Shown: one piece after another, positions 39,884 to 57,642 of the stretch
Layout: each line of letters starts with the position of its first letter
How positions within the stretch are numbered: the first letter of the stretch is position 1
From: an uncultured Lentisphaeraceae bacterium
Lineage (GTDB): Bacteria; Verrucomicrobiota; Kiritimatiellia; RFP12; DVOR01
Assembly: GCA_949288955.1 (NCBI GenBank)
Contig: CASEMS010000010.1
Coordinates: 33,696 to 97,695, forward strand
DNA length: 64,000 nucleotides
Direction: 5' to 3'
Made by a program: the position numbers and the translations under genes
The notes under the pieces: model-generated
Database searches by the model: none
Seen by the model: only the letters and a program-made list of their open reading frames with translations
Told to the model about the DNA's origin: nothing

Positions 39884-40519
39884 ATGGCCCTTGCGAAACT
39901 GTTACTGACGATTACTTTATCCACGCTGGCACTCGTTTCCGCCCGAGCAGTCGCCATGCCTTGGACACTTACCAATTTCGACTATCTACAACAAGCCGAC
40001 GAATCGCAACAACCTAGCGAATCGCGCCCAATCTCTGGTGTACAGATTCCCTCTTTCAACCTTTCCCTCTCCGACCTCTCGACTTCGGGCGATATGCAAC
40101 TCGCCTCCCAAACGGTCGTCCTTGAAACGGTTCTTATCGCCATGCGATCAGCCGGGCCAGACAAATTCGTCCCGGAGCGACTCATCCTCGCCCAAAAAGA
40201 TGGCACGCGTATTGCTGCCGCGACTGCCACTCCCACCTCACAAACCGTCACGGTTTACACCAGCCCCACGACGACTACCACTTGCAACGTGTGGGCATAT
40301 ACCTTTAGCGGAAAATTGCCAACGATAAGTACCTCCATCGATTACGATCTCATTTTCGCCACTAGCGATTGGTCTATTTATGAGACCTCCAAGTTTCGCG
40401 ACGACCAAACTATTCTCGCTCGAAACATCGCTGACGAGCCAAACATTGAGAACGCCATCTGGGCCCCCTTCATCCTGACAAGCGGCACATATACACCCCC
40501 CCCCCAGTGGCGCACCTGA
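39884..40519 (+). pseudogene. PEP-CTERM-type secreted protein interrupted by a C10 homopolymer; the +1 frame continues to 40580 encoding PEPTALSLLALGVALTFLRRR
   Basis: A signal peptide MALAKLLLTITLSTLALVSARAVA leads a Thr/Ser-rich body of ~48% GC. The C-run at 40496-40505 is followed by TGA at 40517. With 9 C instead of 10 the ORF reads ...TPPPSGAPEPTALSLLALGVALTFLRRR* (stop 40578-40580), a textbook PEP-CTERM sorting signal. The tail DNA is ~70% GC. Confidence 0.6.
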
Positions 40520-40565
40520 GCCGACGGCCTTGTCCCTCCTCGCCTTGGGGGTGGCCCTCACCTTC

Positions 40566-40626
40566 CTCCGCCGCCGCTGATCCACTTGGATCAGCGGCTC
40601 GTCCGAGGTGGATCAGCCGCCGATCC
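40566..40626. repeat. 22-bp REP-like family, locus 6
   Basis: gctgatccacttggatcagcggctcgtccgaggtggatcagccgccgatccgac. Confidence 0.7.
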
Positions 40627-40646
40627 GACCCGAGCAAGCCGCCATC

Positions 40647-40684
40647 GCAAAAAAGGGCCCCCGACGCTTCCCGCGCCGGGGGCC
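40647..40684 (-). terminator. Rho-independent terminator for the acyltransferase gene (minus strand)
   Basis: On the minus strand, GGCCCCCGgcgcgggaagcgtCGGGGGCC is followed by cttttttg. Confidence 0.55.
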
Positions 40685-40710
40685 ACCTTTCATCATCCAA
40701 GCCTATCCGC

Positions 40711-41772
40711 TCACAGCGTCCCATCGAACACCCGCATCAGCCTCGGCGCGATCCTGCGCCCAACCCGATGTGCCAACACACAAAGCGCCGTGCCAAACAA
40801 GACAAAAATCAGGCATAGCATCGTCAGCACTCCTGTTACACGGGGCAACAATGGTGCCACCGTGTGAAGCAAGGTGGAGGCAAAAAGGAAGTGTCCGGCA
40901 TAGACGAAGAACGCTGATGGAGCCAACCATTCCTGAATCCACCGAGCCGTGAGCAACCGTGTCAGCGGCTTCGCCACCGTCCATAGAAGCGGGATTGTCA
41001 ATACCGTCAACGCCGTCGTCACCACTGGAGGAAGAGTGCCGACCATGGCTTTGACCAGAAACATCCCCACCATCGCGGCCACGGAAATCGGCAAGAAGAC
41101 CATTCGATGCCTCTGAAAGAAGGCTGGGGCGTCAAACGAGCGAGCCGCCATGCCCCCTCCCGTTATGAAGGCAATCGCCGCATACGCCGGATAGGTCATC
41201 TTCAACGCCTCCGCCTGACCAGGGAAAAGTGCCGTCGCACCAACCAGCGCCACACACAACATCGCCAAACCCCACGCCGGGACTTTCCTGAACACCCAGT
41301 CAAGCACCGGCGCGAAGAGTGCGAAGACAAACAAGGTGCGGACGAACCACAGAGGCCCATCGATTGGGTGGATGGTCAAAGAGACGATTTTGTCCAAACA
41401 GCCCGACCATGTGTCCAGCCCAAATTGCGCAACGCGCGTGGCCAAGCGTGGCACCACCGCAGCAAAAGCCAAGTAGACCACCACGAACAGTACATTCCAC
41501 GCCAAATAAGGGACTGCCAGGCGCCGGACACGCGACCAGATCTTCCGCCCATACTGCGCATTCGAATAGTTGCGAAAGAGCAGATAGCCAGACAGGAAGA
41601 ACAACGTCGGCAGAAGCACCGGAGCGAATCCACCACACAGGAAACTCCAAAACCAATATTCCGCGCCCTCATGGCGAACGTATTGGAAAGCCGCCGACGC
41701 ATGTAACAGCACGACGAGCAGATTGCAGAAAAGGCGAACCGAATCGATTTCGGCTGAACGTTTCGTAGTCAT
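40711..41772 (-). CDS. Acyltransferase family 3 (OafA/OatA-like polysaccharide O-acyltransferase), 10 TM
   Basis: EIDSVRLFCNLLVVLLHASAAF... is an integral membrane protein with the Acyl_transf_3 N-terminal signature (R/H in TM1). Confidence 0.65.
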   Translation of the reverse strand: MTTKRSAEIDSVRLFCNLLVVLLHASAAFQYVRHEGAEYWFWSFLCGGFAPVLLPTLFFLSGYLLFRNYSNAQYGRKIWSRVRRLAVPYLAWNVLFVVVYLAFAAVVPRLATRVAQFGLDTWSGCLDKIVSLTIHPIDGPLWFVRTLFVFALFAPVLDWVFRKVPAWGLAMLCVALVGATALFPGQAEALKMTYPAYAAIAFITGGGMAARSFDAPAFFQRHRMVFLPISVAAMVGMFLVKAMVGTLPPVVTTALTVLTIPLLWTVAKPLTRLLTARWIQEWLAPSAFFVYAGHFLFASTLLHTVAPLLPRVTGVLTMLCLIFVLFGTALCVLAHRVGRRIAPRLMRVFDGTL

Positions 41773-41773
41773 T

Positions 41774-43027
41774 TCACTCCTCATAATCGTTTTGCAGAAC
41801 CTCTATCTCCTGCACCAAACGCAACAAGGCCTCCGCCGCACACTCGGCCGTCCATTCGCCGATGGGGACGGACGGGATGGGCGCACGGAGTTTTTGGGCG
41901 AGGGTCTCGACGTCGCCGGCGCGGAAGAGGTTGCTCGGCGGCAGGAGCGTTGCGCCGGCGCCGGATTCCACCGTCGCCAAGACGCGCATACCCTCCTCCA
42001 AAGCCTCGCTCACCACCGCGCCCCACCCCTCGTAGCCGTTGCTGGGGAGCACGTAGACATCGTGCGCGCGCATGAGCTCGCGCACCTGCGCCACGGGCAC
42101 GAAGTTATGAAAGCGGATAGTGTCGCAGCCCTTGGCGAGTTTGCGCAGGTGCGTCTCCTCCGGGCCATGGCCATAGAGATCCAATAAAATCCCCTCGCGC
42201 TTCAAATCCGGGCGCGGGCGGCACGCCCGCGCCAAATCCCCCACGCGCTTCAAATCAAGCATCCGCCCGACCCAAAGCGCCGCGGGCGGATGCTTGATTG
42301 GAAGCGCGTGAGCCCCCCCCTCCCCCCCACGGGAGGCGCCCCGCCCCGGCGCCACGAAATAGCCCCACATCCGCAATTTCGCGAACACCCCCTTGGGGCG
42401 TACCCGCCCCCATCGCTCCCGCGGAATCTGCGCGAACCCATGTTGCTTGGCGAAAGCAACCGCCTCCGCGTCGAGCACCCCCTCCGCAATCGCCTGCCCC
42501 AACGGCACCACCACCCCACCCGGCCGCGACTCGAACACCACCTTCGGCGCGCGGAAAAAGCACCGCCAATCCCCCGCGAAAAGCCCCAACACCCGCGCCA
42601 TGTCCCGCGCCGCGTGCACCCCCATCGGCAGGCAGAGGAACCCCGGCGCGCGCACGCACCGCGCGAACCGCCGCGCCATCCGGAAGTATGAGGGCACCAA
42701 AAGCCGCAGGAACCCCAACGGCGGCTTAAACCACCGCTCCGCCGCATAGAACGTCGCCTTCCCCGCCGCGTTGCGCCGCTCGAAAAGCCCCAACGCTCGG
42801 AGCCCCGACAGCACACAATCCGCCTCGGCTAACGCCGCGTCCTCCATCGTCCCCTGCACGCACCACGTCGGCACCGCGTCCCCGCCCCACCCCATCCGCG
42901 TACGCTCCCCATGCGCCGCCTCCGTGTGGACATAGCGGTAATTCGCCTCCCCCACCCGCCGTACCAACGCCTTCGCCAACGGCACCTGATGCGGCGACAC
43001 CACATTCGTCAACAACGCAATCTTCAT
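41774..43027 (-). CDS. Glycosyltransferase family 4 (GT-B)
   Basis: MKIALLTNVVSPHQVPLAKAL... and the C-terminal ...VYVLPSNGYEGWGAVVSEALEEGMRVLAT. High GC. Confidence 0.7.
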   Translation of the reverse strand: MKIALLTNVVSPHQVPLAKALVRRVGEANYRYVHTEAAHGERTRMGWGGDAVPTWCVQGTMEDAALAEADCVLSGLRALGLFERRNAAGKATFYAAERWFKPPLGFLRLLVPSYFRMARRFARCVRAPGFLCLPMGVHAARDMARVLGLFAGDWRCFFRAPKVVFESRPGGVVVPLGQAIAEGVLDAEAVAFAKQHGFAQIPRERWGRVRPKGVFAKLRMWGYFVAPGRGASRGGEGGAHALPIKHPPAALWVGRMLDLKRVGDLARACRPRPDLKREGILLDLYGHGPEETHLRKLAKGCDTIRFHNFVPVAQVRELMRAHDVYVLPSNGYEGWGAVVSEALEEGMRVLATVESGAGATLLPPSNLFRAGDVETLAQKLRAPIPSVPIGEWTAECAAEALLRLVQEIEVLQNDYEE

Positions 43028-43111
43028 ACGAGCCCGCACCGTTCCTTTCCGCTTGACTTCGCACCAAGACTCGACAACTGTAGAATGTCAATAGATGTAA
43101 AACCGACTCCA

Positions 43112-43618
43112 TCAGCGATAACGCTTTCGTACCTCCGCAGGCACGCCTGCAAGTAAACAATACGACGTGGTAATTGACTTCGTAACAACCGCGCCCGCCG
43201 CCACCAATGTCTTCTCCGGCAACGACACGCCTGGCAAAATCACGCTACGCGCCCCTAACCAACACCCATCACCAATCGAGACCGAGGCAGAGGTTCCTTT
43301 GCCCCCAATATGTTCCCCTTCGACATCCACCGAATGGCTACCGGTGAACATCATAACTGATGGGCCCAAATCAACATGATTCCCAATGCGAATTTCCCCA
43401 CTCCCTGCGGCGGACAAATAACAACCAGGCCCAATCCACACATCATCGCCAATCGTTATTTCTCCTGTCCCATTGAAAATTACGGAAGCCGAAATCCGAA
43501 CGCCCTGCCCAATGGTTACCCCACACCAAGCCAATAACTTCGTTCGAAATCCAAAACAACGAGTCTCTGGCAACATCCTATTCAATAGATTATAAAAAAA
43601 CAACCGATTTGTTCTCAC
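43112..43618 (-). CDS. Hexapeptide-repeat (LbH) sugar O-acetyltransferase
   Basis: Multiple [LIV]GxxxxI hexapeptide repeats (ITIGDDVWIGPGCYLSAAGSGEIRIGNHVDLGPSVMM...). Low GC. Confidence 0.65.
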   Translation of the reverse strand: MRTNRLFFYNLLNRMLPETRCFGFRTKLLAWCGVTIGQGVRISASVIFNGTGEITIGDDVWIGPGCYLSAAGSGEIRIGNHVDLGPSVMMFTGSHSVDVEGEHIGGKGTSASVSIGDGCWLGARSVILPGVSLPEKTLVAAGAVVTKSITTSYCLLAGVPAEVRKRYR

Positions 43619-43632
43619 GTCGTCTCTTTCTC

Positions 43633-44589
43633 TTATTTCCCTATTACCTGAATGACATTCAAACGTTTCTCCTCTCCGGCAATTGGAATCAACTCATGCC
43701 CAGCGCCAACCTCTCCGACATATCGCCCCGGCACAGGAACTTTCTCTTTTGCCCCCATCTGTTTCCACATATATTCCACATCAACATGCCCTGCATCAAT
43801 TGCCCAAAAACCTGCTTTGCACAAATCATAGGCTAAAACCGTCGCTGTCGCCCCCAATGCCAACAAAATTAGTCGGCCCTGGGCATATTTCTTTGTTGTC
43901 TCCAATATTTCGTCATAAAATGTATAGGCGTTGAAAGGAGGGCACCAAAGACGCATAGTTGATTTCGCGCCATCAAATAAATCATTTCCAACACCAAGAC
44001 GTGAAAAACGCCCTTCAACGATGAGGAGATCGCGCCCTTTCACCAACTCTTTCCATAGGTCAAAAACAGTCCCATCAGTGACGCCACATGCAGGACACTC
44101 TTGAGATGGTCGTGAAATACAAGCATCCCCATAAATCGCATGAGAACAAAACAACGGCAAACATTTCTCCCCTGTTCTAAACAACGTGTCTCGCCAAAAA
44201 CGTCGAGCCTGCAAATTGAAATGATCCATTGACCCAAAAATATTAGGGATTGCGCAAAGGCCATCATTCACCGAATCCCCAATGATTTCACGCAATCGCT
44301 TCCCGAGCTCTAAGTTCACACATTGTGAACCCATTCGCTTCCCAAGCATCATTCTGAATTCCCCATCCCCATATCGCCAGATACTCTTTCGCTCATGGAT
44401 AATCTTCTGTAATGTATCTGCGATCCCCAACACATTCGGAGCATTATCCCGAAATTTCTGCCCAGTCTCGTAATAAAAATTACGCTCTAACAAATCCAAC
44501 TCATTACGGATTTGCTCTATCTTCTTCCATAAACAAATAGAACGCTTAATTCGTCCAAGAAGATGTCGAACTCTCCAATATAACGTCAT
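43633..44589 (-). CDS. Putative GT-D-fold glycosyltransferase (DUF1792-like)
   Basis: WRYGDGEFRMM... and the overall ~320-aa architecture resemble DUF1792/GT-D proteins from capsule loci; the assignment is from memory and tentative. Confidence 0.35.
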   Translation of the reverse strand: MTLYWRVRHLLGRIKRSICLWKKIEQIRNELDLLERNFYYETGQKFRDNAPNVLGIADTLQKIIHERKSIWRYGDGEFRMMLGKRMGSQCVNLELGKRLREIIGDSVNDGLCAIPNIFGSMDHFNLQARRFWRDTLFRTGEKCLPLFCSHAIYGDACISRPSQECPACGVTDGTVFDLWKELVKGRDLLIVEGRFSRLGVGNDLFDGAKSTMRLWCPPFNAYTFYDEILETTKKYAQGRLILLALGATATVLAYDLCKAGFWAIDAGHVDVEYMWKQMGAKEKVPVPGRYVGEVGAGHELIPIAGEEKRLNVIQVIGK

Positions 44590-44607
44590 AAACTACTCCT
44601 CTATATC

Positions 44608-45747
44608 TCAATTCGCATGTTTTAGCCGCATTGCCGCTTCATATCGCGAAACCACAGAATCAATTGTGTAAGGCTCCCAAGATTGTCGGGAGGGCACACT
44701 TGGATTGTTGATAATGTCTTGCATCGCTTCTGCAAGACAATGTGCATCCCCTAGCGGAACAAGTTTCCCCCAAAGTCCATTTTTGAGAATTTCTGGTGGT
44801 CCATAAGGACAATTGGTCGAAACGACAGGAATCCCGCTTGCCAAAGCCTCAACAAGCACGACGGAAAACGATTCTACCGTAGAAGAACAAACAAATCCGG
44901 TCGCCGCTTTAAGTTCTGCTGGCAAATTCTCATAGAATCCAGCTAATGAAACGACATCCGTTAATGCTTCTCGTGCAAGAAATGCTTTATACTCTCCCGG
45001 GACTTCCTCACGCCCAAAAATAATTAATTGGACACGTTGGGATTGATTGAGAATCTTGATTGCTTCAAAAAGAGTGAAAAAACCCTTACTCAAAACAAAC
45101 GCCCCCGCAGCAACAAACGTGGGACATTTCCGTTCTCTCAACCAAGGATGCGTAGGAAGCTTTTTCAGCTTCTCAAAGAAAAGATCGTCAACCACTGGAT
45201 TATATACGACAGAAATACGATTACGCGGGATATCCCCTATTTTTGCCATAGCATTGGCAACGCCCTTGCTAACAGCCATGAAATGCACATAAGGTGCCTG
45301 AAACAATTTCATTTTCACCCATTGCGCCGACCATCGTCGTGGAGGTTTGATAGACGTCTTCCCATCAAATTCGACATCGATTCCTCCGTTGTGTTCAACA
45401 TAATATATAGACGCACGAGAAAAGAAACTTATCATTCGCGCCAACGACAATGCATAAAAATAATTTGACGACATCGTCACGACCGCTCGGGCATCTGTTG
45501 TAGATAGATACTTAACAAGCGGAAAGACATTCATTCGTGCCGACCGATAAGGGAGACAAACCCAATGCACACCTTTTGGCACATCAAATGGTTTGCCTTG
45601 TTCACCGCTACGTAATAAATCCCAATGCACCTCAGAAACTACTAAATCCACGTCATATCCATGCGCCACAAAACCACGTGCCAACATAGCTGCCACATAT
45701 TGTGCGCCTCGCGCAAATAAATCTTGAATAAGAATGGCAATCTTCAT
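44608..45747 (-). CDS. Glycosyltransferase family 4 (GT-B)
   Basis: MKIAILIQDLFARGAQYVAAMLARGF... and the C-terminal ...FVCSSTVESFSVVLVEALASGIPVVST. Confidence 0.7.
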   Translation of the reverse strand: MKIAILIQDLFARGAQYVAAMLARGFVAHGYDVDLVVSEVHWDLLRSGEQGKPFDVPKGVHWVCLPYRSARMNVFPLVKYLSTTDARAVVTMSSNYFYALSLARMISFFSRASIYYVEHNGGIDVEFDGKTSIKPPRRWSAQWVKMKLFQAPYVHFMAVSKGVANAMAKIGDIPRNRISVVYNPVVDDLFFEKLKKLPTHPWLRERKCPTFVAAGAFVLSKGFFTLFEAIKILNQSQRVQLIIFGREEVPGEYKAFLAREALTDVVSLAGFYENLPAELKAATGFVCSSTVESFSVVLVEALASGIPVVSTNCPYGPPEILKNGLWGKLVPLGDAHCLAEAMQDIINNPSVPSRQSWEPYTIDSVVSRYEAAMRLKHAN

Positions 45748-46784
45748 AATCTTCTTCTTGTGAGCATTTGTTTCAAAGCCCCTATAGCAGATAAAGCATG
45801 ACAAAGAACCATGTCAAACGCAGGAATTCGCATCAATCGGACAAGCCACGCCCGAACACTCCATTTGGGAAGAGGCAAAGGCACGTCTCGCAGGAACATC
45901 CGCACCTCATGCCCAATAGCTCCGGCCCCACCGCGATAACAGGCATGCATAGTAACTTCCGTCACTAAGCAATGCACCAAAACCTCCCGAAGCCTCTGAA
46001 CATAAACCAGCCATCCAGACACACAAGACAAATAACGCTGATAAACAAGTCGGAAGGCCCTAAGTTGATCATGGAGTAATCGGATGCCCTGTCTTTTCGT
46101 CGCTTGCCCAGCATGAATCCGATAATAATATGCACACTGCCTTATCATCAACATACCATGTAGGCGCCCAGCCAAACCCGCGAAAAAGCACGTATCCTCG
46201 CACATTGAAATCCCAATGGGAAATCGAAGAGCCCCAACGGCATCCGCCCGTATTAGCCCACCCAAAATCATTCCACCGACAATCATTTCATCAATAAAGA
46301 AACGGATGGTTTCCATTTGTGTCAGATATAGCGGCTGTGCGCTTCCCTGATAATACCCTCCCCCCATCAAACAATAACCCCACTTGACGAACTCAATCGA
46401 CACGTTTTGGTTTTGCCTCAACATCTCATACACTTGACCAAGCGCCTGCTTGGCATAACAATCATCCCCGTCGAGAAAGCCGACCCATTGGCCGCGAAGG
46501 CAATCGAGTGCACGGTTACGGGCGGCAGAGACGCCGGCGTTGGGTTGATGGGTGATACGGAAGCGAGGATCGCGGCGGGCGTAGGCATCAAGGATAAGGT
46601 CGGAGCCGTCCTTGCTGCCGTCGTCGGTGCAGAGACATTCCCAGTCAGCAAAGGTCTGCGCTAAAACGGAATCGAGGCATTCGCCCAAATAGGGTATCAC
46701 GTTGTAGACAGGCACAATCACAGAGAAGAAGGGCAATTGCCGTTCTTTTTGGGTTGGCGTTACCGCTTGTGCCTGAGGTTTCAT
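45744..46784 (-). CDS. Glycosyltransferase family 2
   Basis: FSVIVPVYNVIPYLGECLDSVLAQTFADWECLCTDDGSKDGS...FLDGDD. Confidence 0.75.
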   Translation of the reverse strand: MKPQAQAVTPTQKERQLPFFSVIVPVYNVIPYLGECLDSVLAQTFADWECLCTDDGSKDGSDLILDAYARRDPRFRITHQPNAGVSAARNRALDCLRGQWVGFLDGDDCYAKQALGQVYEMLRQNQNVSIEFVKWGYCLMGGGYYQGSAQPLYLTQMETIRFFIDEMIVGGMILGGLIRADAVGALRFPIGISMCEDTCFFAGLAGRLHGMLMIRQCAYYYRIHAGQATKRQGIRLLHDQLRAFRLVYQRYLSCVSGWLVYVQRLREVLVHCLVTEVTMHACYRGGAGAIGHEVRMFLRDVPLPLPKWSVRAWLVRLMRIPAFDMVLCHALSAIGALKQMLTRRRL

Positions 46785-46826
46785 AACGCGCTTAGTGTAG
46801 CAAAAACGTAGCAATCACACTTTGCC

Positions 46827-48773
46827 TTATTCCGTCGTGTTCATCATTTCGTTCGGTTCTTCGTTCGTTTTCCTCGATGACAGAATAGTGTTGAACCGTT
46901 GAACAAGCGAAGTTCGAATTGTGTTTATCGTCGTCTCAACAAGCGCGATACGATTGGGTTGTTTCCACTGTCCCTTCTGATGATAGATCGCCACTCGATT
47001 TTGTTTCATTTTCTCAAGAATGGTCTTCCACGAATCCGCCTCTTGGATCAATTTCGGCAACCACTCCTGCCAATTCTGAACTCTTACGAAATACCGTTCT
47101 CGTACCATCTCTTGAAAAACAAGCGAGTCTTCCACTGATGCCTTTAAAAGTAAAGCCGCAAATTGCGCACAGGCATCGTCATCCAATAGAACTACCGGCC
47201 GATTGCGAATCTTCTCGCTCATTAAGAATTGGCACAGGCCTATCAGATTTTCCTTACACAGACAGTCGGTTATCTGTTCCTTGACTTTCGTTTCATACTG
47301 CTTTTGCGCAAGATTTTCAACAAGTTCTAGATTGTGTTGATACCAATCATCCTTCTCTTCCGAGATACTAAATCCAGCGAAACTGTCGTTCCACGTACCA
47401 TCTTCGGAGAAGACTAGTTGCTCCCTCACACTCGAAACATAATCTTCAAATCGCCTCGCCAAATGTTGCAAATGATCTTCCCACGCGGGAAGGAAATGCG
47501 CCAAAAGAGAGGGTCTTATCAACTTCAATGCGTCGTACCGCCGTTTATCGTATTTTCTTAAAAGTTCGAACACAAGCCTGATTTCCGCGGAGTCCGTAAT
47601 TTTGTGTTCCTGCAAAGCAATCAAGACTTTCCTCCGCGCCTTACGGGTTTCGCCATCATCCTTTGCCCACGCTCTAAACAACGGTTCCCAAGCGTAATCC
47701 TGACGATAGTAAACAGACTGTCGTAGTTCCTCGCGAATCGTTTCCGCATGGAAGCTACAACCATCAATCACTGTTGTCCACGACTCTGAACTCAGCAGCC
47801 AATTGAACGAAAGAAACGATCCAAACATCTCAAAGTCAAACTGCGTGCAAATGGAAAGCAAATCCCCCCAAGTAAACTTCTTGTCAGAAGAGGTGGCCTC
47901 CTTTCCATCTCCCCCAATTGGGGCTATGTTTTTCAATATTCCGAGTTGCGTCGAATACGCAAAGAGAAGAAAGAGGCATGTGAAATGAAGTTCCAAGTGT
48001 TCTGGTTGAAAGATTTCCGCCCCCAATGCGCTCTTCCACTGTTTCAATTGCCAAAGTGCCGCCTTAAACGCGCGATAATTGAAATGCTTCAGTTGATCGT
48101 AAATCTCATTCATGAGCAAAGTACTAAACGCCAACACACGTTTGTCTTCTTGAAAAGACAGAGCATTATCACCCATCAAAATAGGGATCACGTCTTCCGG
48201 TTCGCGAACCAAGGTGTAGGTCTTGCCTACAAACTTCTCTTTGAGCGATGTGTACTCCTGATCTACAAACAATTTCTCCTCATTGCCAATGTAGACCACA
48301 GGTTTTTGCGTCTGCTCGACAAACGCCTCCAAATAGCCCATTCGTTGGCGAAGTGGCAATTCACACCGCTCAAGGTCATCAAATACAACCGCTTGTTTAC
48401 GCGCTTTTCCCTGTTCGCGTTCCTTAAAAAAGGCGCTTATCCCACTCAACGCCCCCGTCAAGTCAGCCCCACATCCCTTGATTAATTCGGCAATCCCATT
48501 TCCCAAACGAAGTGCCTTGAACATCCATGTACGCGAGACATCGCCACAGAACGCCTCAACAATGCGTCGCTCAATTTCTTCAACAGACGCGACACCGTTC
48601 AATGAGATATACAGGACTTCTCCACCCTCTGCTTTTACTTGTTTGATAAGTTCCTTTATCAGATAGGTTTTTCCACATCCCCACGGGCCTGTCAGCAAGA
48701 CGGGAAAATCCGCAGAGGCTTCCATCATGTAAGTTTTTAACGCTTCTTTGACCGCTTGATTGCTTGCGTTCAT
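46827..48773 (-). CDS. KAP-family-like P-loop NTPase (648 aa), putative defence/abortive-infection component
   Basis: Walker A VLLTGPWGCGKTYL and Walker B AVVFDDLERC (the hhhhDDLER form typical of KAP NTPases), with a long alpha-helical C-terminal region. Low GC; it lies last in the ATPase-DUF4276-NTPase gene order. Confidence 0.45.
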   Translation of the reverse strand: MNASNQAVKEALKTYMMEASADFPVLLTGPWGCGKTYLIKELIKQVKAEGGEVLYISLNGVASVEEIERRIVEAFCGDVSRTWMFKALRLGNGIAELIKGCGADLTGALSGISAFFKEREQGKARKQAVVFDDLERCELPLRQRMGYLEAFVEQTQKPVVYIGNEEKLFVDQEYTSLKEKFVGKTYTLVREPEDVIPILMGDNALSFQEDKRVLAFSTLLMNEIYDQLKHFNYRAFKAALWQLKQWKSALGAEIFQPEHLELHFTCLFLLFAYSTQLGILKNIAPIGGDGKEATSSDKKFTWGDLLSICTQFDFEMFGSFLSFNWLLSSESWTTVIDGCSFHAETIREELRQSVYYRQDYAWEPLFRAWAKDDGETRKARRKVLIALQEHKITDSAEIRLVFELLRKYDKRRYDALKLIRPSLLAHFLPAWEDHLQHLARRFEDYVSSVREQLVFSEDGTWNDSFAGFSISEEKDDWYQHNLELVENLAQKQYETKVKEQITDCLCKENLIGLCQFLMSEKIRNRPVVLLDDDACAQFAALLLKASVEDSLVFQEMVRERYFVRVQNWQEWLPKLIQEADSWKTILEKMKQNRVAIYHQKGQWKQPNRIALVETTINTIRTSLVQRFNTILSSRKTNEEPNEMMNTTE

Positions 48774-48783
48774 TGCTTAATGA

Positions 48784-49581
48784 TTATGGCGTCGTGGTGG
48801 TCTGTTTATTTAAGGGCTCGGTGTTGAAGAAAAGCGTATACAGGAAGGTGATGAGGGGTGCCAAGGCGGGGGCTTGCCAATTCCAGAGGGTGTCGTTGAA
48901 GAAGGCTCGGTTGATACCGTTGTGGTCCCAAGTACGGACACCGAAGGCAGCCGCATATTCTGTCATCATAGACTTGCGCGTGGTGGGGTTGAAGTTGTGC
49001 GCTTTAAGGCACGCGTCGAATCCGGCCCAGCAGTCCATGAAGAAGGTTTCGTGATTGGGGTCTACACGATTGACACAATCGCGCATCAGGGTTTCCAGGT
49101 CGCCTTCGCGTTGGTTGTCCGGAAGGAGGAAGATGTGTTCTCGAGGGAAGATGCCCAGTTCTGCATACCTCACATCATTCCGCACCTCTTTCCGAGCCTT
49201 TTCCTGCAACTTTCCAATAAGCCAGCTCGGGCGCTCCGTGATCCCGCCATGTGTACGCCTATCCGTGGACGTTCCGGGTGGGTCTTGAGAGTCCGCATCG
49301 ACGATGAGCGCGGCGGCAAAGGTGTCGGCATCCAGAAGTTCCACTGGACGAAGGAGGTTTTTGGCTTGTCTTTCCACATTGGCGACCCCGTCCGTCCAAT
49401 AGAGACTCACATCAAGGTCAGCCTCATGGCACGACAATGTCTCTCCTTGCGACAGGCTCACGTTACCAGACACCAAAGAAGCCCATTTCTTTGTGGACGC
49501 GAAAGCAAAGCGACGCACAAGGAGAACATACAGGAAGTAGACGTCCTTGCTACCTTCGAGAACAATGTGGACACGTCTCAT
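48784..49581 (-). CDS. DUF4276 (RloB-like) family protein, partner of the upstream AAA_21 ATPase
   Basis: MRRVHIVLEGSKDVYFL... AALIVDADSQD ... GIFPREHIFLLPDNQREGDLETLM resembles the DUF4276 family pattern. The start overlaps the ATPase stop by ATGA. Confidence 0.45.
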   Translation of the reverse strand: MRRVHIVLEGSKDVYFLYVLLVRRFAFASTKKWASLVSGNVSLSQGETLSCHEADLDVSLYWTDGVANVERQAKNLLRPVELLDADTFAAALIVDADSQDPPGTSTDRRTHGGITERPSWLIGKLQEKARKEVRNDVRYAELGIFPREHIFLLPDNQREGDLETLMRDCVNRVDPNHETFFMDCWAGFDACLKAHNFNPTTRKSMMTEYAAAFGVRTWDHNGINRAFFNDTLWNWQAPALAPLITFLYTLFFNTEPLNKQTTTTP

Positions 49582-50636
49582 CGCAGTTCCACCCCCAGGT
49601 CGAGCTGTGCATCGGTGTCGGCGCCGGAAAGGGTCTCGGCGACGACCGTGCCGTCCCTGCGGCGGCGAAGGCCGATGAAGGTGAGGTCTTCCGTGCTGTT
49701 GTCGCCAATGGGCATGGCGATTTGCCGAAGCATCTCCACATTGTGCGTGGTCGCTATGATTTGGACATCGTGCTCGGTCGCAAACCGTGCCAAGCTTTCC
49801 CAAACCACCTGCATTGCCGAATGGTGGAGCCCATTCTCAATCTCATCGATGCAGAGCAACCCGCCACCTTGGCAAGCATTAGCCACCACGAAAAGTCGGA
49901 TGACGTGCAGCATACCTTCACCCAAAACGGGGACGGGCAGGAGCGTTGGTCCACCGAGATCGACCAACACCTCTTGTCCGGCGAGCGCCAAGCGTTGGAC
50001 ACGCCCATCAATGCGCTTGAGCGCCTCAATAAGCGGACCCTCCTGCTTGTTTTTGATGAGGTCAGCAAGATCCGTCCCGCCACCTCTTTCTCGTGCTCCA
50101 AGATAGGCACACCGCCACGTTTCCCGACTGGTTCCCCCAGAGAGCGCCAAGATTCTCCCGCCCTTATCTACCAACGTGCTCAAAATACCCTGTTCAGTCG
50201 GCTCCTCGCCTCTTGGGCCAATTGCATAGGTCTGTTCCAACGCAGGATAGGCCTCGACATTGGTGACAGTCTGCGTGCCGTCCGCCCCGGGAAGTTCGTA
50301 ACGCCTGAATCCGCCATCTTTCGATTCCCGCGTGCGCAACACATAACGCCGCTCTTCCTGTCCGTCAAACTGTCCGACAATCTGAACCGGCAACGTGATG
50401 TCTTGGTCGTGAAACAGCGCATGAAGCTCCCGCGCCGTCTCCGGGGGCATCTCCCGATTGGCCGACACACGCTCGGGCATATCCGGCATTCTCATACCTG
50501 AGAGCAGGAAGATGGCCTCAAGCACCGAAGATTTCCCGATGTTGTTCTTCCCCGCCAAGACATTGAAACGCGTCAACCGAGGCAACGACAATCGGCCCAA
50601 GCCGCGAAAATGCTCAATCGTGATGGCTCGCAACAT
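49578..50636 (-). CDS. AAA_21-type ABC ATPase (RloA/OLD-N-like), putative defence ATPase
   Basis: MLRAITIEHFRGLGRLSL...NVLAGKNNIGKSSVLEAI (Walker A) ... LLCIDEIENGLH (Walker B) ... IIATTHN (H-loop). Confidence 0.6.
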   Translation of the reverse strand: MLRAITIEHFRGLGRLSLPRLTRFNVLAGKNNIGKSSVLEAIFLLSGMRMPDMPERVSANREMPPETARELHALFHDQDITLPVQIVGQFDGQEERRYVLRTRESKDGGFRRYELPGADGTQTVTNVEAYPALEQTYAIGPRGEEPTEQGILSTLVDKGGRILALSGGTSRETWRCAYLGARERGGGTDLADLIKNKQEGPLIEALKRIDGRVQRLALAGQEVLVDLGGPTLLPVPVLGEGMLHVIRLFVVANACQGGGLLCIDEIENGLHHSAMQVVWESLARFATEHDVQIIATTHNVEMLRQIAMPIGDNSTEDLTFIGLRRRRDGTVVAETLSGADTDAQLDLGVELR

Positions 50637-50797
50637 AACCAAAATCCTGTCATCCTCGCATAAACGTCGCCATCCCTCCGCGCACCTCACCCAATAAGGC
50701 ACTCCCGCGAGATTGCAACGCTCGTGTTCGATTCCTCGTACAATATCTTCATTATAGCAGAAATAGGCGTTTCGTTCCCTGCCCCTGCGCTGCGTGG

Positions 50798-50833
50798 GGA
50801 AGAAAAAAGAAAGGCCCCCGAGGAGTCGGGGGC
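50798..50833 (-). terminator. Rho-independent terminator of the giant gene (minus strand); also the right boundary of the low-GC island
   Basis: On the minus strand, GGCCCCCGACTCCTCGGGGGCC is followed by tttcttttttc. Confidence 0.7.
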
Positions 50834-50853
50834 CTTGGGTGGCGGGAGTGGGA

Positions 50854-53800
50854 TTATTGGGCCGGAGGGATAACGCGCACCTTGAAGAGGAAGGTCGGCT
50901 CGGTGGAGAGGGCCATAATCTCCACGATGGACTCGCCCGACTCGTAGACCGGCTTCTTCGTGGGCAGGGTCGTCTCCGAGCCGTCGGCCAGATCGACGGC
51001 CACGAGGGTCACCGTGGAGCCCACCGCGAAGGAGACCGCGCCGTTCGGGGCGGAGAGCGCGATGGAGACGGAGGCGCCGTAATCGTTCCGCTCGATGGCC
51101 GTGACCTTGAGGTCGTAGGCCACGCGCAGGGCGGTGCCGTCGACCGTCACCAAGCCCGCGCCCGTCAGGCAGGCGAGCGCCTCGTTGATGGCGGCGGTGG
51201 TCATGGCCTTGCCGTTGGCCGTGCCGGAGATGGCGGTGACCTCGGGGAGGCCGGCCCGCTCGGCGGCGGCGGAGAGGACGGCCACGGCGTTGGCGTCGAA
51301 GACCACGCCGCCTTCCTCGTCGCCCTCGGCGATGGTGGGCAGGACGGGGCCGGAGGGCTCGGGGATGACCCAGAGGCCGCCCTCCCGCACCGCGAAGACC
51401 CAGCCCTCCGGCGCGCCGGCGAAGGCGTCCGCCGTCTCGGGCCCGCTCTCCCACGCCAGGAGCTGACGCTCCGCCGTGAGCTCGGGGAGGTTCGCGATGG
51501 TCAGGGCCGCGCCCTCGTCGATCGCCACCGTCGTGGCGGTCTTCTGCCCGGCGGCGAAGCAATCGAGCGCCACGCCGTCGGCCAACTCCAACGTGCCTTC
51601 GATGGCGCCGACGCCGGCGAGCGTGCCGGCCTCGACGCGGAGACCCGCCCGCATGGTGATGCCGGAGATGCTCAACGTCCCAGAGCCGGTCTTGATGAGG
51701 CGGCCCGTGCCGGAGATTCCGTTCGGGAGGTTGAAGATCCCGCCCTCGGGCACCTCATAGGTGAAGTCGGCGTTGAGCGTGACCGCGCTGCCATCCATCA
51801 GCGCGAGGTTGGCGGTGGAGGCCACGAGCGGGCCGTTGACCGTCAGCGCCAGCGGGATGAAGCGCGGCTCGGGGTTGCTCTCGGAGAGCGTGCCGAGGGT
51901 GAGCGTGTGCTCGGAGGCGACGACCGTCAGGCTCTTCACCCAGTAGGGCAACGCGGAGAGCGTCACGTCCGCCTCGGCGGTGAGCGCCACGTCAATCGAC
52001 TGCCAGGCGTCCACCGACATCGTCTCCAGGATGGCGGGGTCGATGGGGCGGCCGACGGCGTCGATCCACGGCGCGGCGTTCCAATCCACGTCCGCGGTGA
52101 GGGTGGCCGTCCACGCGCCGCCGACGGCGGCCTGGCGGACGGCGTAATAGGTGCCATCCTGGTAGATGGCGACGAAGCCCTCGGGCGCGGTGGGCGTGAG
52201 GCCCTTGGGGGCGTGGAGCACCGCCACGCGCGTGGTCTCATCGGGGATGTCCAGCGCGGAGAGGTCCAGGGCGCACGTGCCGGAGACGCCGCCCTCGATG
52301 GTGAGCACCGTGCCGGGGAGCACCTTGAGCGTGCTGCCCTCGGCGAAGTCGACGTCGCCCACGATGCGACCGCCGCCCGCGAGCGTGCCCGAGACGGCCA
52401 TGCCCGATTCGACGGTGACCGTGAGGGGCGCGGGGGCGCCGAAGACCTGCGTCATCCATGCGTTGGTGGGCCAGGTGATGGCCTCCTCGGAGGTGAAGTC
52501 CTGCGCGTCCACGGGCGTCCACAGACTGCCGTCGGCGCTCACCTCCACCGTCCACGTGCGGGGGTTGCGGCCGATCTGGTCGGCCATCGCCAGACGGTAA
52601 CCGTTGAAGGAGACGGTGTTGCCCTCGCCCACGTCGATAGTCAGCGTGCAGTCATCGAAGGCCGTGTCCCCCGTCTCCCAGAACCACTTGGTGCCGAGGT
52701 CGCCGTCGATAAGGTGATCGTCCCGATGGCTGACGTATGCCTGCGCCTGGGAGGCCACGCACTCCGTGCCCTCGGGCCACGGCACGGGCGCCCCGTCGCG
52801 CAAAAGCTGGAACTCCGCGATGGCGATGCCCTTGTTGTTCGGCACATCCGCCGTCACGCGGGCGGTGGGGACGAAGCGGACGTAGCGGACGGACTGCGGC
52901 GTGCCGAGCGGCAACGTCAGGGAGCCCTCCACCGTCAGCGTGTCGGCCGTCAGCGTGCCCGTGCCTGTGAAGGCGTAGTCGCCCGCGACCGTGACGGCGG
53001 CGGCGGTGGTGTCCTCCGCGATCGCGACCGGCACCTGCGTGGCCGTGTTCGCGCCGAAGATCGCGTTATCGACGGGGCGGAAGCCGGGGAGGCCCTCGGC
53101 CCAGGCGCCGCCCGCATCGGGCGTCGCCCATTCCACGTCCGCCACCTCGCGGGCGCGCACCCAGAGGCCATCGGCCTCCACCACCAACGTGCAATCCTCC
53201 GGCAGCCCCTCCACCGCGAAGCACTCGGCGGTCTCCGGCCCCTCGCTCCACGCGATGACCTGGACATCGTAGGGCACGGCGGGCAGCCCCGCCACGGGGA
53301 CGACCACGCCCTCGGCCACCGTCACCTTGTCGAAGACCGCCGTGCCGACGGTGAGGGACGCGCCCTCGCAGAGGTTGACGGTGCCGCTGACGGCGCCCGC
53401 GTTGCCGTAGGCCGCGTGGACGTTGAGGACGTTCTCGGCGTTGGCGGAGGTGTCGATGATGAGGGAGCCGCCCGCCTCGATGGTGACAGGGCCGGTGCCG
53501 AAGACCTCGGGATCGCGCACATCCACCCGCGAGGCCACCTCCGTGCCGCCGGAGTAGGAGGCGGCATGAAGGTTGTAGATGGTGCTGTTGGTGTCGGCGT
53601 AGCGCACCTTCAACGTGCCCCCCTCCTCCGTGATGGCGCAACGGAGGTCGTAGGAGTTACTCTCCTCCCCGGAGTCTTCGTCAAAGATGAGCAGACCGCG
53701 ACCGCGGATCGCCCCCGTGAAATCGACCGCCCTGCCGTTGTGCACGCCCCGGATATGGGCGGCCTTCTCGACGGAGCCGTCGTTCTCGATCAGGAAGGTC

Positions 53801-56800
53801 GGCGCGATGGGGCGCGTGGAGAGCCACTCATTCCCGCAGTTGAAGAAGAAGACCGCGTTGTCGCGCAGGGTGATGGTGGCATCCGCGTCCGAGAGCGAGC
53901 CCATCGGCGCCGAGACCTCGACCCGCGTGCCGCCCTCCGCAATCAGATTCGGGATGGACCCATAGATCGTCCCCCAATCCTCGGCGCTCGGGAAGCGGAA
54001 GATGCCCTCACGAACGTGGATGGAAGGCGTGACCGCGATGCCCTTATCCAGCGTCAGCGTGCCGGAGCCGGTCTTGACGAGCGTGCCGGAGCCGGAGAGC
54101 GCGGGCAACGCGACGGAGCCGGAGACGTCGTAGGTCAGCGTGCCCGCGATCTCGCCACCGGAAGGAAGCGTGAGCGTGTCGGGAGAGGCGGCCAACGCGC
54201 CCTCGACCGTCAGCGCCTGCGGCGCCAAGGTGGCATCGCCCGCCAAGGTGAGGGTGTGCTCGGAGGGCTTGACCGCGAGCGAGGCCACCTGCGTGACGGT
54301 GGGGTCGGTGCGCAGGGTCGCGCCCTCGGCGCCCGCCGTGACCTCGACCACGCGCTCGGCGACCGGCAGATAGGGCCACTGCGCCGCATCGACGGGCGCA
54401 CCGGCGGTGTCCGCCCAGCCGGCCTCCATCCACGTGGCCTCGCCGGAGACGGTGGCAGAGAAGGGCTCCGTCAACGCGGGCACCAGCCAATAGGTGCCGT
54501 CCACGTGGCGCACCTCGTAGCCCTCGGGCGCGACAAAGGCAATCCCAGCCTGCGCGGCATGGAGCACGGGCAGGAAGGTCTCGCCCTCCACCTCCACGCG
54601 CAACGCCACCGTGCCGGCGGCCTCACCCGTGACGGTGGGCACGGAGACGCCGTCGACCACGAGCGCGCTGCCCTCGTAGAAGCGGACGTCGCCCAGCACA
54701 AGGCCCTGGCCGGCAAGCGTGCCGAGGACGTCCAGCCGCCCCGGCTCGGGGATGCCAAGCACGAAGGGCCCGTCCGAAGGCTCGGCCGAGACGGGGAGGG
54801 TCTCCCCCAGCCACGCGCTGGGCGTCCACGCCAGGGCGGTCTCGTTGTCGAAGTCCTGGGTATCAAGGGGCTCCCAGTCCGCGCCGTCGTCGCTCATCTC
54901 CAGCGTCCAGACGCGGGGGTTGCGACCGTTCTGGTCAGCCACCGCCAGGGCGTAACCGTCAAAGGCGAACGAGCGGCCCGCGCCCGCGTCGAGGGTCAGC
55001 GTGCAGGCGGAGAAGGTATCCGTCGACCAGAGCCACTTGGTGCCGAGGTCGCCGTCCAGGAGATCCTCCGCGCGGTGGGGGCCGTTCGTCTGCGCCTGGC
55101 TGGCCGTGATGGTGGCGCCCGCGGGCCACGGGAGGCGCACGCCGCCCAAGGTCAGCGCGAGGTCGGCAAGGGCGACGCCATCGTTGTGCTCGCCGCCGGT
55201 GGTGCGGTCGGTGATGGAGAGGCGCAGGTAGCGGGCCCGGACGGCCTTCCCCGTGCCCAACGTCAGCGTGGCGTCCGGCTCGACGGTGACGGACTCGGCC
55301 GTCAGCGCACCCGCGCCGGAGAGGGCATAGTCGCCCAAGACGTCCACCCACCCGGCGGAGACGACCTCGGGGAGCGTAACGGGCTCGCTGGCCTCATTCG
55401 CGCCGAAGCGGACATCCGCGCCCGCGGCGAAGCCCGCAAAGCCCGCGGCCCAGTCGGTGCCCTCGGCGGGCGTGGCCCACGCCAGACTGGTGGGCGCGCC
55501 ATACTCCACGCGCCCGCCGACCAAGCGGAACGCCCACCCCTCCTGCGGGTTGGTGACCTCGAAGAGCTCAGAGAAGTCCATTGGGGTGCCCTCATAGCGC
55601 CCGAGCGTTACGACGCCCGCCGCGATCTCGTCCTCCGTCAGCGTTACCTGCGCGGTGGCGCCCTCCACCTCCTGCGAGACGATGGCGTTGGGGAGGCGGC
55701 GGTCGCCCAGCACCACATCGCCCCGGAGCGTCAGGCGATTGAAGGAATCGATCGTGGCACCGGAGAGGTCGACGGCCCGCTCCCCGCCGTCGATGACGAG
55801 CGCGGAGTCGCCGACGGTGGCGCCGCGCTCGCAGGGGATGAGGTTGCCCGTGAAGATGCCGGCCCGGAGCACCAGCGAGGCCGTGCCCGTAACGTGCGCG
55901 GTGCCGCCGCTGCCGCCCGCGCAGAGAATCTTGCTGCCGAAGGTAACGTTGGGCGCGTCCACCACCACGGTGGAGTCCCCATTGACGGTATAGTTGCCCG
56001 TCGTGTTGTCCGCCACGCGCGAGGCGCCCAACACGTGCTTGCCGAAGGAGCCGGAAGCCTCGGGGATCTCGATCTCCACGCGCGTGTCGCCGTTGACGAC
56101 GTAGCCGGACCCCACATTGCCGGACGCACCGGGCAGCGCGCCGCCGACGATGTCGGGGCGGCCCACGATGCCGTCGCCATCCGTGTTGGCGGTCATGAGG
56201 GAGCGGATGCGCACGGTGGCGTCGCCGTTGTGCTGCACCGTGAAACGGTGCTGGGAGGTGCCGCCGCCCACGACGGCGCCGGAGACCTGCGCGCCGTCTG
56301 CGATCGTAACCAGCGAGTCGCCCGTGAAGGGAAACGCGCCACTGTTCGAACCGTTGCCGCCAGCGGCGATGGCGCCGATGACGTTCTTGGCGCGGGTGGA
56401 AGAGCCCGTGACCTCCGTCAGCAGATTGCCTTTGATGGTATTGGCGCGGGAGCTCGTCCAGTTGTTTTCCTTGCCGCCGACGATGGTGCCGTAGGTGCCG
56501 CCGGAGACCTTCAGCCACACATCGCGCTCCAAGGTGCTCCTGTCGCCCTGCCCATTGCCGGTGATGCCATAAATACTCGGCGTGCCTGAACTGCCGACGA
56601 TCTCCGCCACATTGGCCGCGCGGCCGCCCAACGTCTGCCGCGCCTCGACGAGCAAGTCCAACTCAAGCGTGCCGTCTGCGGTGCGGTTAAGGCCATGGGT
56701 CGGGACCTCGCCCCACCCCTCCGGCACATCCTCGAAGGCAATCGCCAATTGGTTGTTCCATTCCCGAGACAGGCGCGTGCGCTCCTCCTGGGTCAACTGG

Positions 56801-57531: not shown

Positions 57532-57642
57532 CGTCGTTTCTCCTTTCGATAAGGTGGCACACCTTGTGCGACTCTGAAAGCAGTATAACATCCCCCACCA
57601 CCTATTGCAAGCGCCCCCGAAAAGGGCGCCCCCGCCGCCCCC

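Follow-up and report, generated by a model that had tools for sequence, protein, structure and literature searches.

Two candidate anti-phage modules, probably a split-OLD ATPase–Toprim pair and an independent KAP NTPase, side by side at a polysaccharide cluster of an uncultured Lentisphaeraceae bacterium

Three genes at positions 46827..50636 of the analysed DNA, a stretch of 64,000 nt that is termed the window throughout, probably constitute two independent candidate anti-phage modules lying side by side, namely an ABC ATPase paired with a stand-alone Toprim nuclease (a split-OLD pair) and a single-gene KAP-family NTPase. Both modules are of kinds that are already catalogued as candidate anti-phage, and both are presumed to act against phages. 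The defence-type gene content named in the original prediction was supported; its union of the three genes in one cassette was not upheld when other genomes were compared.

Gene organisation of the locus

An ORF check of the window returned the three predicted genes, all co-directional on the minus strand: the ABC-type ATPase (49578..50636, 352 aa), its small partner (48784..49581, 265 aa) and the P-loop NTPase (46827..48773, 648 aa). The stop codon of the ATPase gene and the start codon of the partner gene overlap by 4 nt (ATGA), as had been noted before, and this overlap is kept in the homologous loci L006, L011 and L014. Partner and NTPase genes are separated by 10 nt, and 42 nt lie between the NTPase gene and the GT2 glycosyltransferase gene (45744..46784, minus strand; gene calls and Pfam in L001) that comes first in the polysaccharide cluster and belongs to the context outside the defence modules. 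Upstream of the ATPase gene, a gene for an F5/8-type-C giant protein was called (50854–57690, 2278 aa, GC3 0.91), in agreement with the predicted position between glycosyltransferases and a giant gene. The strong intrinsic terminator of the latter (50811..50836, minus strand; 11-bp stem with 8 GC pairs, followed by a T-run) marks the upstream boundary of the cassette transcription unit. A TATAAT hexamer (50751..50756, minus strand), read from the sequence 115 nt 5' of the ATPase start, is a possible −10 element on weak evidence; the promoter scan passed it over for lack of a −35 match. The terminator scan returned no strong terminator between the cassette genes or between the NTPase and GT2 genes, and the cassette genes probably share a transcript with the glycosyltransferase genes.

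GC contents were 58.3% for the ABC ATPase, 54.3% for the partner and 45.7% for the NTPase; the value of about 45% previously given for all three genes thus holds for the NTPase only. The contrast is repeated in L006 (pair 58/54%, NTPase 46%). Purifying selection acts on each of the three genes (dN/dS 0.15–0.22; 0.15 for the ATPase vs L006). A search for att-like or inverted repeats flanking the cassette or the island gave none that was convincing, and the sole tRNA gene, tRNA-Ser (31794–31885), is located approximately 3 kb past the far end of the island and 15 kb from the cassette.

ABC ATPase and Toprim partner

The motifs expected for an AAA_21-type ATPase were found intact (Walker A G29KNNIGKS at residues 29–36, Walker B LLCIDE at 260–265, H-loop TTH at 296–298), together with a signature-like LGEG at 238–241, and the protein matched AAA_21 (1e-20), AAA_15 and SMC_N in Pfam. 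Using the PADLOC models, AbiLi (PDLC02336) was matched at 1.7e-42, with residues 1–349 on profile positions 1–337 of 340, and PDC-M38A at 4.5e-34 over the full length.

The partner had been described as DUF4276-like; this assignment was rejected, as PF14103 gave no match at E ≤ 1 and matched a single one of 46 partner relatives (E = 0.01). Instead, the partner matched DUF3226 (PF11536) over residues 6–251 with 31.7 bits, the Pfam cut-off being 27 bits, and so did all 46 relatives. A confident structure model has the fold of an OLD-type Toprim nuclease. The two-metal site of BpOLD (E400, E404, D455xD457, T506xE508, K562) recurs in the partner as E9, D13, D95xD97, D161xE163 and K203, where E9, D13, D95, D97, E163 and K203 are invariant among the 46 relatives and D161 is nearly invariant (at least 90%) in the 23-sequence alignment A2. 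Fold, conserved Glu, DxD, and the metal-B and Lys residues of OLD enzymes, which characterise a Toprim nuclease, were all present.

PDC-M38B matched the partner weakly and partially (1.2e-5, residues 82–251); the PADLOC models for AbiLii and AriB gave no match at E ≤ 1. DUF3226 relatives of the partner matched both AbiLii (4.9e-14 to 5e-8) and PDC-M38B (1e-8) and bridge the two. ATPase and partner would accordingly be placed, as a translationally coupled unit or 'split OLD nuclease', in an AbiL/PDC-M38 continuum. The DUF3226 clade of the partner is small and divergent, with 11 representatives at E ≤ 1e-30 among 1.84 billion. A phage origin was rejected: viral contigs contained no DUF3226 relative, and phage genomes gave few, weak and partial matches only. 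Plasmid copies of the window's partner were not found by tblastn.

KAP-type NTPase

The third protein carries GPWGCGKT (Walker A, residues 29–36) and the predicted KAP-type DDLER (Walker B, 132–136), both invariant in 32 relatives. KAP_NTPase (PF07693) was matched with 35.3 bits, against a Pfam cut-off of 20 bits, over residues 10–113 only, and PADLOC PDC-S49 at 8.9e-67, with residues 1–594 on profile positions 1–590 of 624. A P-loop domain (residues ~1–205) is followed by an all-helical C-terminal region in which no effector domain was recognisable. Membrane anchoring was rejected in the absence of any TM segment (maximum 19-residue Kyte–Doolittle mean 1.55); the TM helices that are inserted in the P-loop domain of many, not all, KAP members are missing here, and the insert at 79–124 was modelled as a low-confidence soluble loop. 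A divergent patch of the NTPase is a recombination mosaic; positive selection as its cause was rejected (dS 1.2, dN/dS 0.13).

The closest neighbours of NTPase relatives are mostly restriction-modification genes, integrases, SIR2 and AAA_21 genes, with no neighbour family recurring in more than 5 of approximately 70 relatives. KAP NTPase matches were obtained in 46 plasmid records.

Conservation and exchange of the pair

Each of 30 metagenome loci that encode a DUF3226 relative has the ATPase gene directly upstream on the same strand, and the anticipated logic of an ATPase with a small partner is therefore well founded, the partner being an OLD-type Toprim nuclease. None of these 30 loci contained the NTPase, and none of 80 genomes or loci with an NTPase relative contained a DUF3226 gene. 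Outside the window's own clone (L001–L005), the three genes were found together in a single relative, L006 (65–84% protein identity; NTPase 65%).

In the sister strains L129 and L131, the NTPase is 94% identical and the glycosyltransferase genes are nearly identical, and the place upstream of the NTPase gene is taken by a different ABC ATPase (452 aa) with a small partner. Comparison with the window by blastn gave breakpoints at 50775/50774, where the left flank ends (89–90% identity), and exactly at 48773, where the right flank begins (97.2% identity). The slot thus delimited (48774..50774, minus strand), which holds the ABC–Toprim pair in the window, is a hotspot of cassette exchange alongside a KAP NTPase that stays in place, since a different pair occupies it beside a 94%-identical NTPase. 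Some ABC ATPase with a small partner adjoins the NTPase in every close relative. Conservation of the whole trio was ruled out by the reciprocal neighbourhood scans and the strain comparison, and the three-gene cassette of the original prediction was abandoned; PADLOC likewise models its parts separately, as PDC-M38/AbiL-like and PDC-S49.

By profile search, a distant homologous pair was found on L127, a non-mobilizable ColE-type Klebsiella plasmid of ~4.2 kb, where it is adjoined by Rop, an HTH gene and a hypothetical gene and no NTPase gene is present. Homologues of the ATPase occur in 139 Klebsiella plasmid records, most of them listed at 4167 bp.

Comparison with known systems

Defence by an ATPase and a Toprim protein is known from AbiL and PARIS (PMC13064643). 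Like AbiL from Lactococcus lactis (AbiLi and AbiLii), the window encodes an ABC/Rad50-like ATPase and a separate OLD-type Toprim protein in two genes; the ATPase matches AbiLi end to end and the partner's fold is of the same Toprim type, but AbiLii is matched only by family relatives of the partner. The window's module further differs in its chromosomal slot next to a glycan cluster of a high-GC uncultured bacterium, and is known from sequence alone. PDC-M38, a two-gene PADLOC candidate from guilt-by-embedding, resembles the pair in that both components (A and B) are matched and are adjacent, co-oriented and in the same order, although the B match may fall below PADLOC's own thresholds. PDC-M38 and the single-gene candidate PDC-S49 are catalogued as 'untested phage defence candidates'; the trio itself is, as originally stated, no described system, while each of its parts corresponds to a catalogued candidate. 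The defence conferred by a Toprim ORF was weak to negligible (PMC13552941).

PARIS was rejected as an assignment, the partner having no AriB/DUF4435 sequence match; the window's ATPase, at 352 aa, is shorter and matches AriA only in parts, and neither the trigger Ocr nor the substrate tRNA-Lys of PARIS is assigned to the pair. In contrast to OLD-family proteins (classes 1–2) and GajA, ATPase and Toprim are encoded by separate, translationally coupled genes, not as one polypeptide. Gabija was rejected for want of a GajB/UvrD helicase gene in the locus, and Septu because PtuA models matched short stretches only (3e-11) and no HNH (PtuB) partner was present.

Single-gene KAP NTPases with C-terminal regions of unknown function protect E. 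faecalis from phages, for which Walker B and the C-terminal region are required (PMC13552941). EF_KAP and the other single-gene KAP defences of that study share a KAP P-loop with a long C-terminal region, a likeness of architecture; EF_KAP has two transmembrane helices and the window's NTPase none. The components of QatABCD (QatA) and MADS (mad3/mad4/mad8) likewise include an NTPase of KAP or P-loop type, or a pair of ABC ATPase and partner. Qat was rejected as QatB, QatC and QatD genes are absent, and MADS as mad1, 2, 5, 6, 7 and the methyltransferase are absent, its core being mad6, mad7, mad8 and the methyltransferase; the MADS matches in the window were weak (mad3 1.3e-12; mad8 4.6e-5, 21 bits), the MAD3 model scoring 54 bits vs a cut-off of 420.

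Polysaccharide neighbourhood

The NTPase gene is followed downstream by glycosyltransferase genes. Most genes adjoining the pair have envelope-polysaccharide or housekeeping functions and are not of the classic defence type, which counts against a defence reading. Envelope-glycan or LPS genes enclose or adjoin the pair in the window and in L006, L011, L014, L100, L112, L116, L120, L125 and L104; it was also found beside housekeeping genes and on small plasmids without glycan genes. The closest NTPase relatives, L007 and L010/L128, are also located at the ends of glycosyltransferase clusters, one of which has an AriA-like ATPase embedded; in L128, this ATPase is 6 kb from the NTPase and AriB was not found beside it. 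A seed-based phmmer test for glycosyltransferase neighbours, weak and insensitive, gave 3/113 ORFs vs 1/676.

A tentative and unlikely extension would be that ABC-ATPase–DUF3226/Toprim pairs are preferentially embedded in, and co-transcribed with, surface-polysaccharide or LPS clusters, forming combined islands of receptor variation and nuclease guard or addiction that are exchanged together. In this lineage the same might apply to KAP NTPases and the AriA-like ATPase, and the slot upstream of the NTPase would be a dedicated guard exchange site.

Alternative explanations

The placement next to glycan genes could also mean that the modules serve the polysaccharide island, for example by policing or stabilising, as guard or addiction modules, a horizontally acquired surface-glycan cluster with which they would be co-transcribed, and are not directly anti-phage. 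Such a role, for which the co-oriented, tight packing with glycosyltransferase genes downstream of one terminator and one −10 element, the ten loci listed above, the NTPases at the ends of glycosyltransferase clusters with an AriA-like ATPase inside one, and the toxin–antitoxin behaviour of PARIS-type ATPase–Toprim pairs may be quoted, is nevertheless decidedly unlikely. Neither a nuclease nor ATPases are known to take part in glycan synthesis, the wider NTPase family adjoins restriction-modification genes and not glycosyltransferase genes, the pair also occurs away from glycan genes, and the neighbour test was weak; moreover, hitch-hiking is sufficient for the glycan link because variable glycan loci are general hotspots of horizontal transfer. 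Plasmid carriage (the pair on L127, the many Klebsiella records of ATPase homologues, the frequency of KAP NTPases on plasmids) would equally suit a purely selfish, toxin–antitoxin-like stabiliser with the NTPase as mobile-element passenger and no net anti-phage benefit. HEC-01, a related ATPase–Toprim candidate, showed no defence in the candidate study, which points the same way and speaks against a defence reading in general. A purely selfish origin is still very unlikely, given that alternative ATPase–nuclease pairs are swapped at a fixed chromosomal slot, the signature of a defence hotspot, that anti-phage activity has been measured in related AbiL, PARIS and KAP proteins, and that both pair genes are under purifying selection.

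Least compatible with the data is one three-component defence system, in which the KAP NTPase would be an extra sensor or regulator of the ATPase–nuclease pair. The shared strand, the 4-nt overlap and the 10-nt gap, the lack of a strong internal terminator and the retention of the trio in L006 do argue for it and against a division into two modules; so do the ABC ATPase and small partner beside the NTPase of every close relative and the AriA-like ATPase 6 kb off in L128, and MADS, with its mad3/mad4-type pair and further P-loop protein, offers a precedent to which the matches here are weak. Yet the pair and the NTPase do not recur together (0/30 and 0/80 loci), an unrelated pair replaces the window's pair beside a nearly unchanged NTPase, the two parts differ in GC, PDC-S49 is modelled as a single-gene candidate, the small plasmid has the pair without an NTPase gene, and mad6, mad7 and the methyltransferase of the MADS core are absent. 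A single system of three components is thus highly improbable.

Proposed mode of action

For the two-module reading, the following course is proposed, for module 1 on the model of PARIS, OLD and Gabija. Module 1 sits in the slot that varies among strains, bounded by the giant gene's terminator on one side and the NTPase gene on the other. At rest, ATPase and nuclease would form a complex that holds the nuclease silent. The ATPase may sense a phage-derived cue and respond with an ATP-dependent change or release, upon which the Toprim protein would cleave DNA or tRNA in a two-metal reaction involving E9, D13, D95, D97, E163 and K203, and cleavage would halt the infection, possibly at the cell's cost. 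Module 2, the soluble PDC-S49-type KAP NTPase, may be an NTP-driven switch that controls its C-terminal helical region, comparable to the phage-blocking single-gene KAP NTPases.

Conclusions

Genes tightly spaced on one strand need not be a system. Of the features of this locus, only the repeated occurrence of the pair by envelope-glycan clusters could open a new direction. If the two-module reading is right, the locus would provide divergent members, from an uncultured high-GC bacterium, for two poorly studied candidate families, the AbiL/PDC-M38-type split OLD nucleases and the PDC-S49-type soluble KAP NTPases. It would also represent a natural experiment, with two alternative cassettes of an ATPase and a small partner in one slot of otherwise collinear strains, which speaks for a role in conflict and offers clean test constructs.

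Organization of the locus

Three co-directional genes were found on the minus strand where the original prediction had placed them: an ABC-type ATPase (352 aa, 49578–50636), its partner (265 aa, 48784–49581) and a KAP-type NTPase (648 aa, 46827–48773). The overlap of 4 nt that had been claimed for the first two was present, the ATPase ending and the partner beginning within a shared ATGA; gaps of 10 nt and 42 nt separate the partner from the NTPase and the NTPase from the first glycosyltransferase gene, respectively. Upstream of the ATPase lies the gene of a 2278-aa F5/8-type-C protein of native composition (70% GC, GC3 0.91), which is closed by a strong terminator (50836–50811), with a TATAAT hexamer (50756–50751) 3′ of the latter. 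Since a terminator scan revealed no comparable terminator between the three genes or before the glycosyltransferase genes, co-transcription of the trio with the glycosyltransferase genes is likely. A uniform GC content of about 45% had been predicted, which holds for the NTPase (45.7%) and fails for the ATPase (58.3%) and the partner (54.3%).

Identical copies of the locus are held by five other assemblies. The public call P0129 (133 aa) comprises the C-terminal half of the partner alone, with loss of the catalytic E9 and DxD, and P0292 (633 aa) starts the NTPase at Met16; both starts appear to be wrong, and the longer forms were favoured because family conservation supports them.

The ATPase and its Toprim partner

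Walker A, Walker B and H-loop of the ATPase are all intact, as had been read from the sequence. The protein matched AAA_21, AAA_15 and SMC_N in Pfam and, end to end, the PADLOC profiles AbiLi (1.7e-42) and PDC-M38A (4.5e-34). Its partner is not a DUF4276 protein as predicted, belonging instead to DUF3226 (31.7 bits, cut-off 27), and matched PDC-M38B weakly (1.2e-5, PADLOC). Comparison of the partner with known proteins scored 12.9 for PH0156 (the DUF3226 structure), 9.2 and 8.7 for Class 1 and Class 2 OLD nucleases, 7.5 for GajA, 6.4 for the Retron Ec67 Toprim and 5.7 for AriB. Across 46 relatives, E9, G10, D13, D95, D97, P154, G160, E163 and K203 were invariant, residues which by pattern match, with no superposition, reproduce in spacing and type the two-metal site of B. 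pseudomallei OLD (E400, E404, D455xD457, T506xE508, K562; PMC6755086).

The partner clade is small: when 1.84 billion representatives were searched exhaustively with HMMER, 370 reached E ≤ 1e-3 and 11 reached E ≤ 1e-30. Partner relatives link two PADLOC models; the partner encoded at L125, another locus with a homologous pair, for instance matched both AbiLii (4.9e-14) and PDC-M38B (1e-8). AbiL and PDC-M38 thus form one 'split OLD' continuum, with the pair of the window probably standing at its edge.

The proposed logic of an ATPase with a small partner was borne out: in 30/30 metagenome loci with a gene for a DUF3226 relative, the gene directly upstream on the same strand codes for an AbiLi-like ATPase. 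The overlap of 4 nt recurs in L006, a relative carrying the trio, and in two loci with homologous pairs, L011 and L014, and against L006 the ATPase had a dN/dS of 0.15 and the partner one of 0.19. ATPase homologues were also found in 139 Klebsiella plasmid records, the 40 of them that were listed being plasmids of ~4.2 kb. The sole plasmid examined, a ColE-type replicon of Klebsiella pneumoniae (L127, NZ_CP070894.1, 4167 bp), carries a homologous pair adjoining Rop, an HTH gene and a hypothetical gene (AbiLi 1.6e-58, PDC-M38B 3.9e-11); its ATPase (2579–3694) is overlapped by an unannotated Toprim ORF (~3673–4167) that continues across the record origin.

The KAP-type NTPase

Over its whole length the NTPase matched PDC-S49, a single-gene candidate in PADLOC (8.9e-67), and its Walker A region matched Pfam KAP_NTPase (35.3 bits, cut-off 20); GPWGCGKT and DDLER were invariant among 32 NTPase relatives. 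The structural model (pLDDT 79.5) comprises an N-terminal P-loop domain followed by ~430 residues of helices. An insert at residues 79–124, the place where many KAP proteins have membrane helices, is soluble and modelled with low confidence; neither a transmembrane segment nor a recognisable effector domain was found in the protein. Single-gene KAP NTPases with C-terminal regions of unknown function guard E. faecalis against phages, and neither Walker B nor the C-terminal region was dispensable for this protection (PMC13552941, 2026).

Within the NTPase gene, a patch at 47874–48203 (residues ~191–300) is 75% identical in nucleotides to L131, a sister strain, the remainder being 94–99.7% identical. 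With a dS of 1.2 in the patch (0.06–0.08 elsewhere) and a dN/dS of 0.13, positive selection was rejected, and the mosaic suggests recombination involving a distant allele.

One system or two modules

The defence-type gene content of the original prediction was borne out, and the observation was largely correct, its errors being the family assigned to the partner in Pfam and the claim on GC; a novel three-gene system was contradicted by reciprocal neighbourhood scans and by strain comparison. The trio is common to the clone of the window and L006 only, where identity to L006 is 78.7% for the ATPase, 84.2% for the partner, 65.0% for the NTPase and 47.9% for GT2. No DUF3226 protein was detected in 80 genome loci with NTPase relatives (flanks up to 10 kb), of which only 2 gave weak generic ABC matches, and no NTPase was detected in the 30 pair loci. 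The pair relatives of L011 and L014 (40% identity) occur without the NTPase, and glycosyltransferase clusters carry the 30%-identical NTPase relatives at their 3′ ends, with no pair present.

Three sister strains from one set of metagenomes (L129, L130, L131) are collinear with the window on both sides. Their giant-gene flank aligns down to window position 50775/50774 at 89–90% nucleotide identity, and on the other side, beginning with the start codon of the NTPase (48773) and including the glycosyltransferase genes, they are 97.2% identical to the window. Between these breakpoints they hold a different ABC ATPase (452 aa; AAA_21/AAA_15) and a 238-aa partner overlapping by 4 nt (L129:2297–5248, L131:3050–6000) in place of window 48774–50774. 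Neither of these proteins matched the DUF3226 profile built here; the 452-aa ATPase reached only 16 bits on our ATPase profile and is weakly similar to OLD, PtuA and AriA in the PDB. Pfam and PDB gave no match for the 238-aa partner, which may, from its Cys cluster (CRQKNCKKCDTC) and D..ExK-like 'DDNIYFIEFK' motif, belong to the PD-(D/E)xK nucleases. Just upstream of the alternative pair lies a fragment of 239 nt that shares 86% identity with the 5′ portion of the window GT2 (46496–46734).

Given the breakpoints and the alternative pair, the slot 48774–50774 is a cassette-exchange hotspot for alternative pairs of an ATPase and a small partner, with the NTPase as its resident neighbour. The GC difference between pair and NTPase, together with an NTPase GC of 43–46% in every context, points the same way. 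Two independent modules, and not a three-gene system, are therefore considered the probable arrangement.

Genomic surroundings and the polysaccharide island

Directly beside the 80 NTPase relatives, restriction-modification genes (N6_Mtase 5, Eco57I 4, HsdR parts 3–4), integrases (3), SIR2_2 (3) and AAA_21 ATPases (3 on each side) predominate. With no single family recurring at more than 5 of ~70 loci, this is the pattern expected of a stand-alone defence-island gene. The pair, unlike the NTPase relatives, often neighbours envelope-glycan or LPS genes. In a census of 100 neighbouring ORFs at 14 loci, the commonest families included Epimerase, Glycos_transf_1, Bac_transf, PS_pyruv_trans, Glyco_transf_9 and Acyl_transf_3. 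Neighbours were UDP-galactopyranose mutase (L100), MBOAT (L104), EptA (L112), GDP-mannose dehydratase (L116), GT1 with a WbaP-like transferase (L120) and lipid A acyltransferase with heptosyltransferase (L125); these six pairs, those of L011, L014 and L006 and that of the window (cluster at 34785–46814) lie in or beside envelope-polysaccharide or LPS clusters, in organisms spanning 34–67% GC. Housekeeping genes adjoin the pair at other loci. A matched seed-based test of glycosyltransferase neighbours, of low sensitivity, gave 3/113 ORFs versus 1/676. The association of the pair with envelope glycans is taken to be real though unexplained, and a functional or evolutionary tie between ATPase–nuclease modules and surface-polysaccharide loci is regarded as unlikely.

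In L128, a locus with one of the closest NTPase relatives outside the sister strains, a 520-aa ATPase (1970–3532; PADLOC AriA, 1e-75) is surrounded by genes for glycosyltransferases. The NTPase homologue P0004 (31% identity) lies 6 kb downstream of this ATPase, which has no adjoining AriB that could be detected.

The island itself (35500–46814) is compositionally mosaic, with genes of 63–67% GC (38706–39830, 41777–43087) among genes of 39–51% GC. When 40826–46826 was compared with L131, identity was 99–100% over 42774–46973, bar one 300-nt window at 98.7%, and 92–96% over 41574–42773; GT2 had a dS of 0.004. Set against the 89–90% of the giant-gene flank, the 99–100% identity of the glycosyltransferase block suggests a recent transfer or sweep of the glycan genes. 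An inverted repeat (42242–42310; 28 nt, 96% complementary, 13-nt loop) lies within the GT1 coding sequence (41777–43027, minus strand), close to direct repeats (42186–42256), and is kept in L006, L129 and L131. Between the PPIase-domain gene and the UDP-glucose dehydrogenase gene, which converge, a perfect hairpin of 16 nt flanked on each side by A/T runs (34735–34770) probably serves as a bidirectional terminator. tRNA-Ser (GCT) at 31794–31885 is the sole RNA gene in the window.

Proposed function

The mechanism of both modules is largely drawn by analogy. The pair would most likely be PARIS-, OLD- or AbiL-like: translational coupling would yield an ATPase–Toprim complex, the ATPase would sense a phage cue and license or release the two-metal Toprim nuclease in an ATP-dependent manner, and the nuclease would then cut DNA or tRNA. 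The NTPase would most likely act alone as an NTP-dependent switch, its helical C-terminal region sensing or executing as in the tested KAP proteins. Counted against defence were the inactivity of HEC-01 (ATPase and Toprim), the weak to negligible protection by a Toprim ORF (PMC13552941), the weak PDC-M38B match of the window partner and surroundings of the pair unlike typical defence islands. PDC-M38 and PDC-S49 are candidate defence families, and a defence role of both modules here is putative; both are new, divergent members of these already catalogued candidate families.
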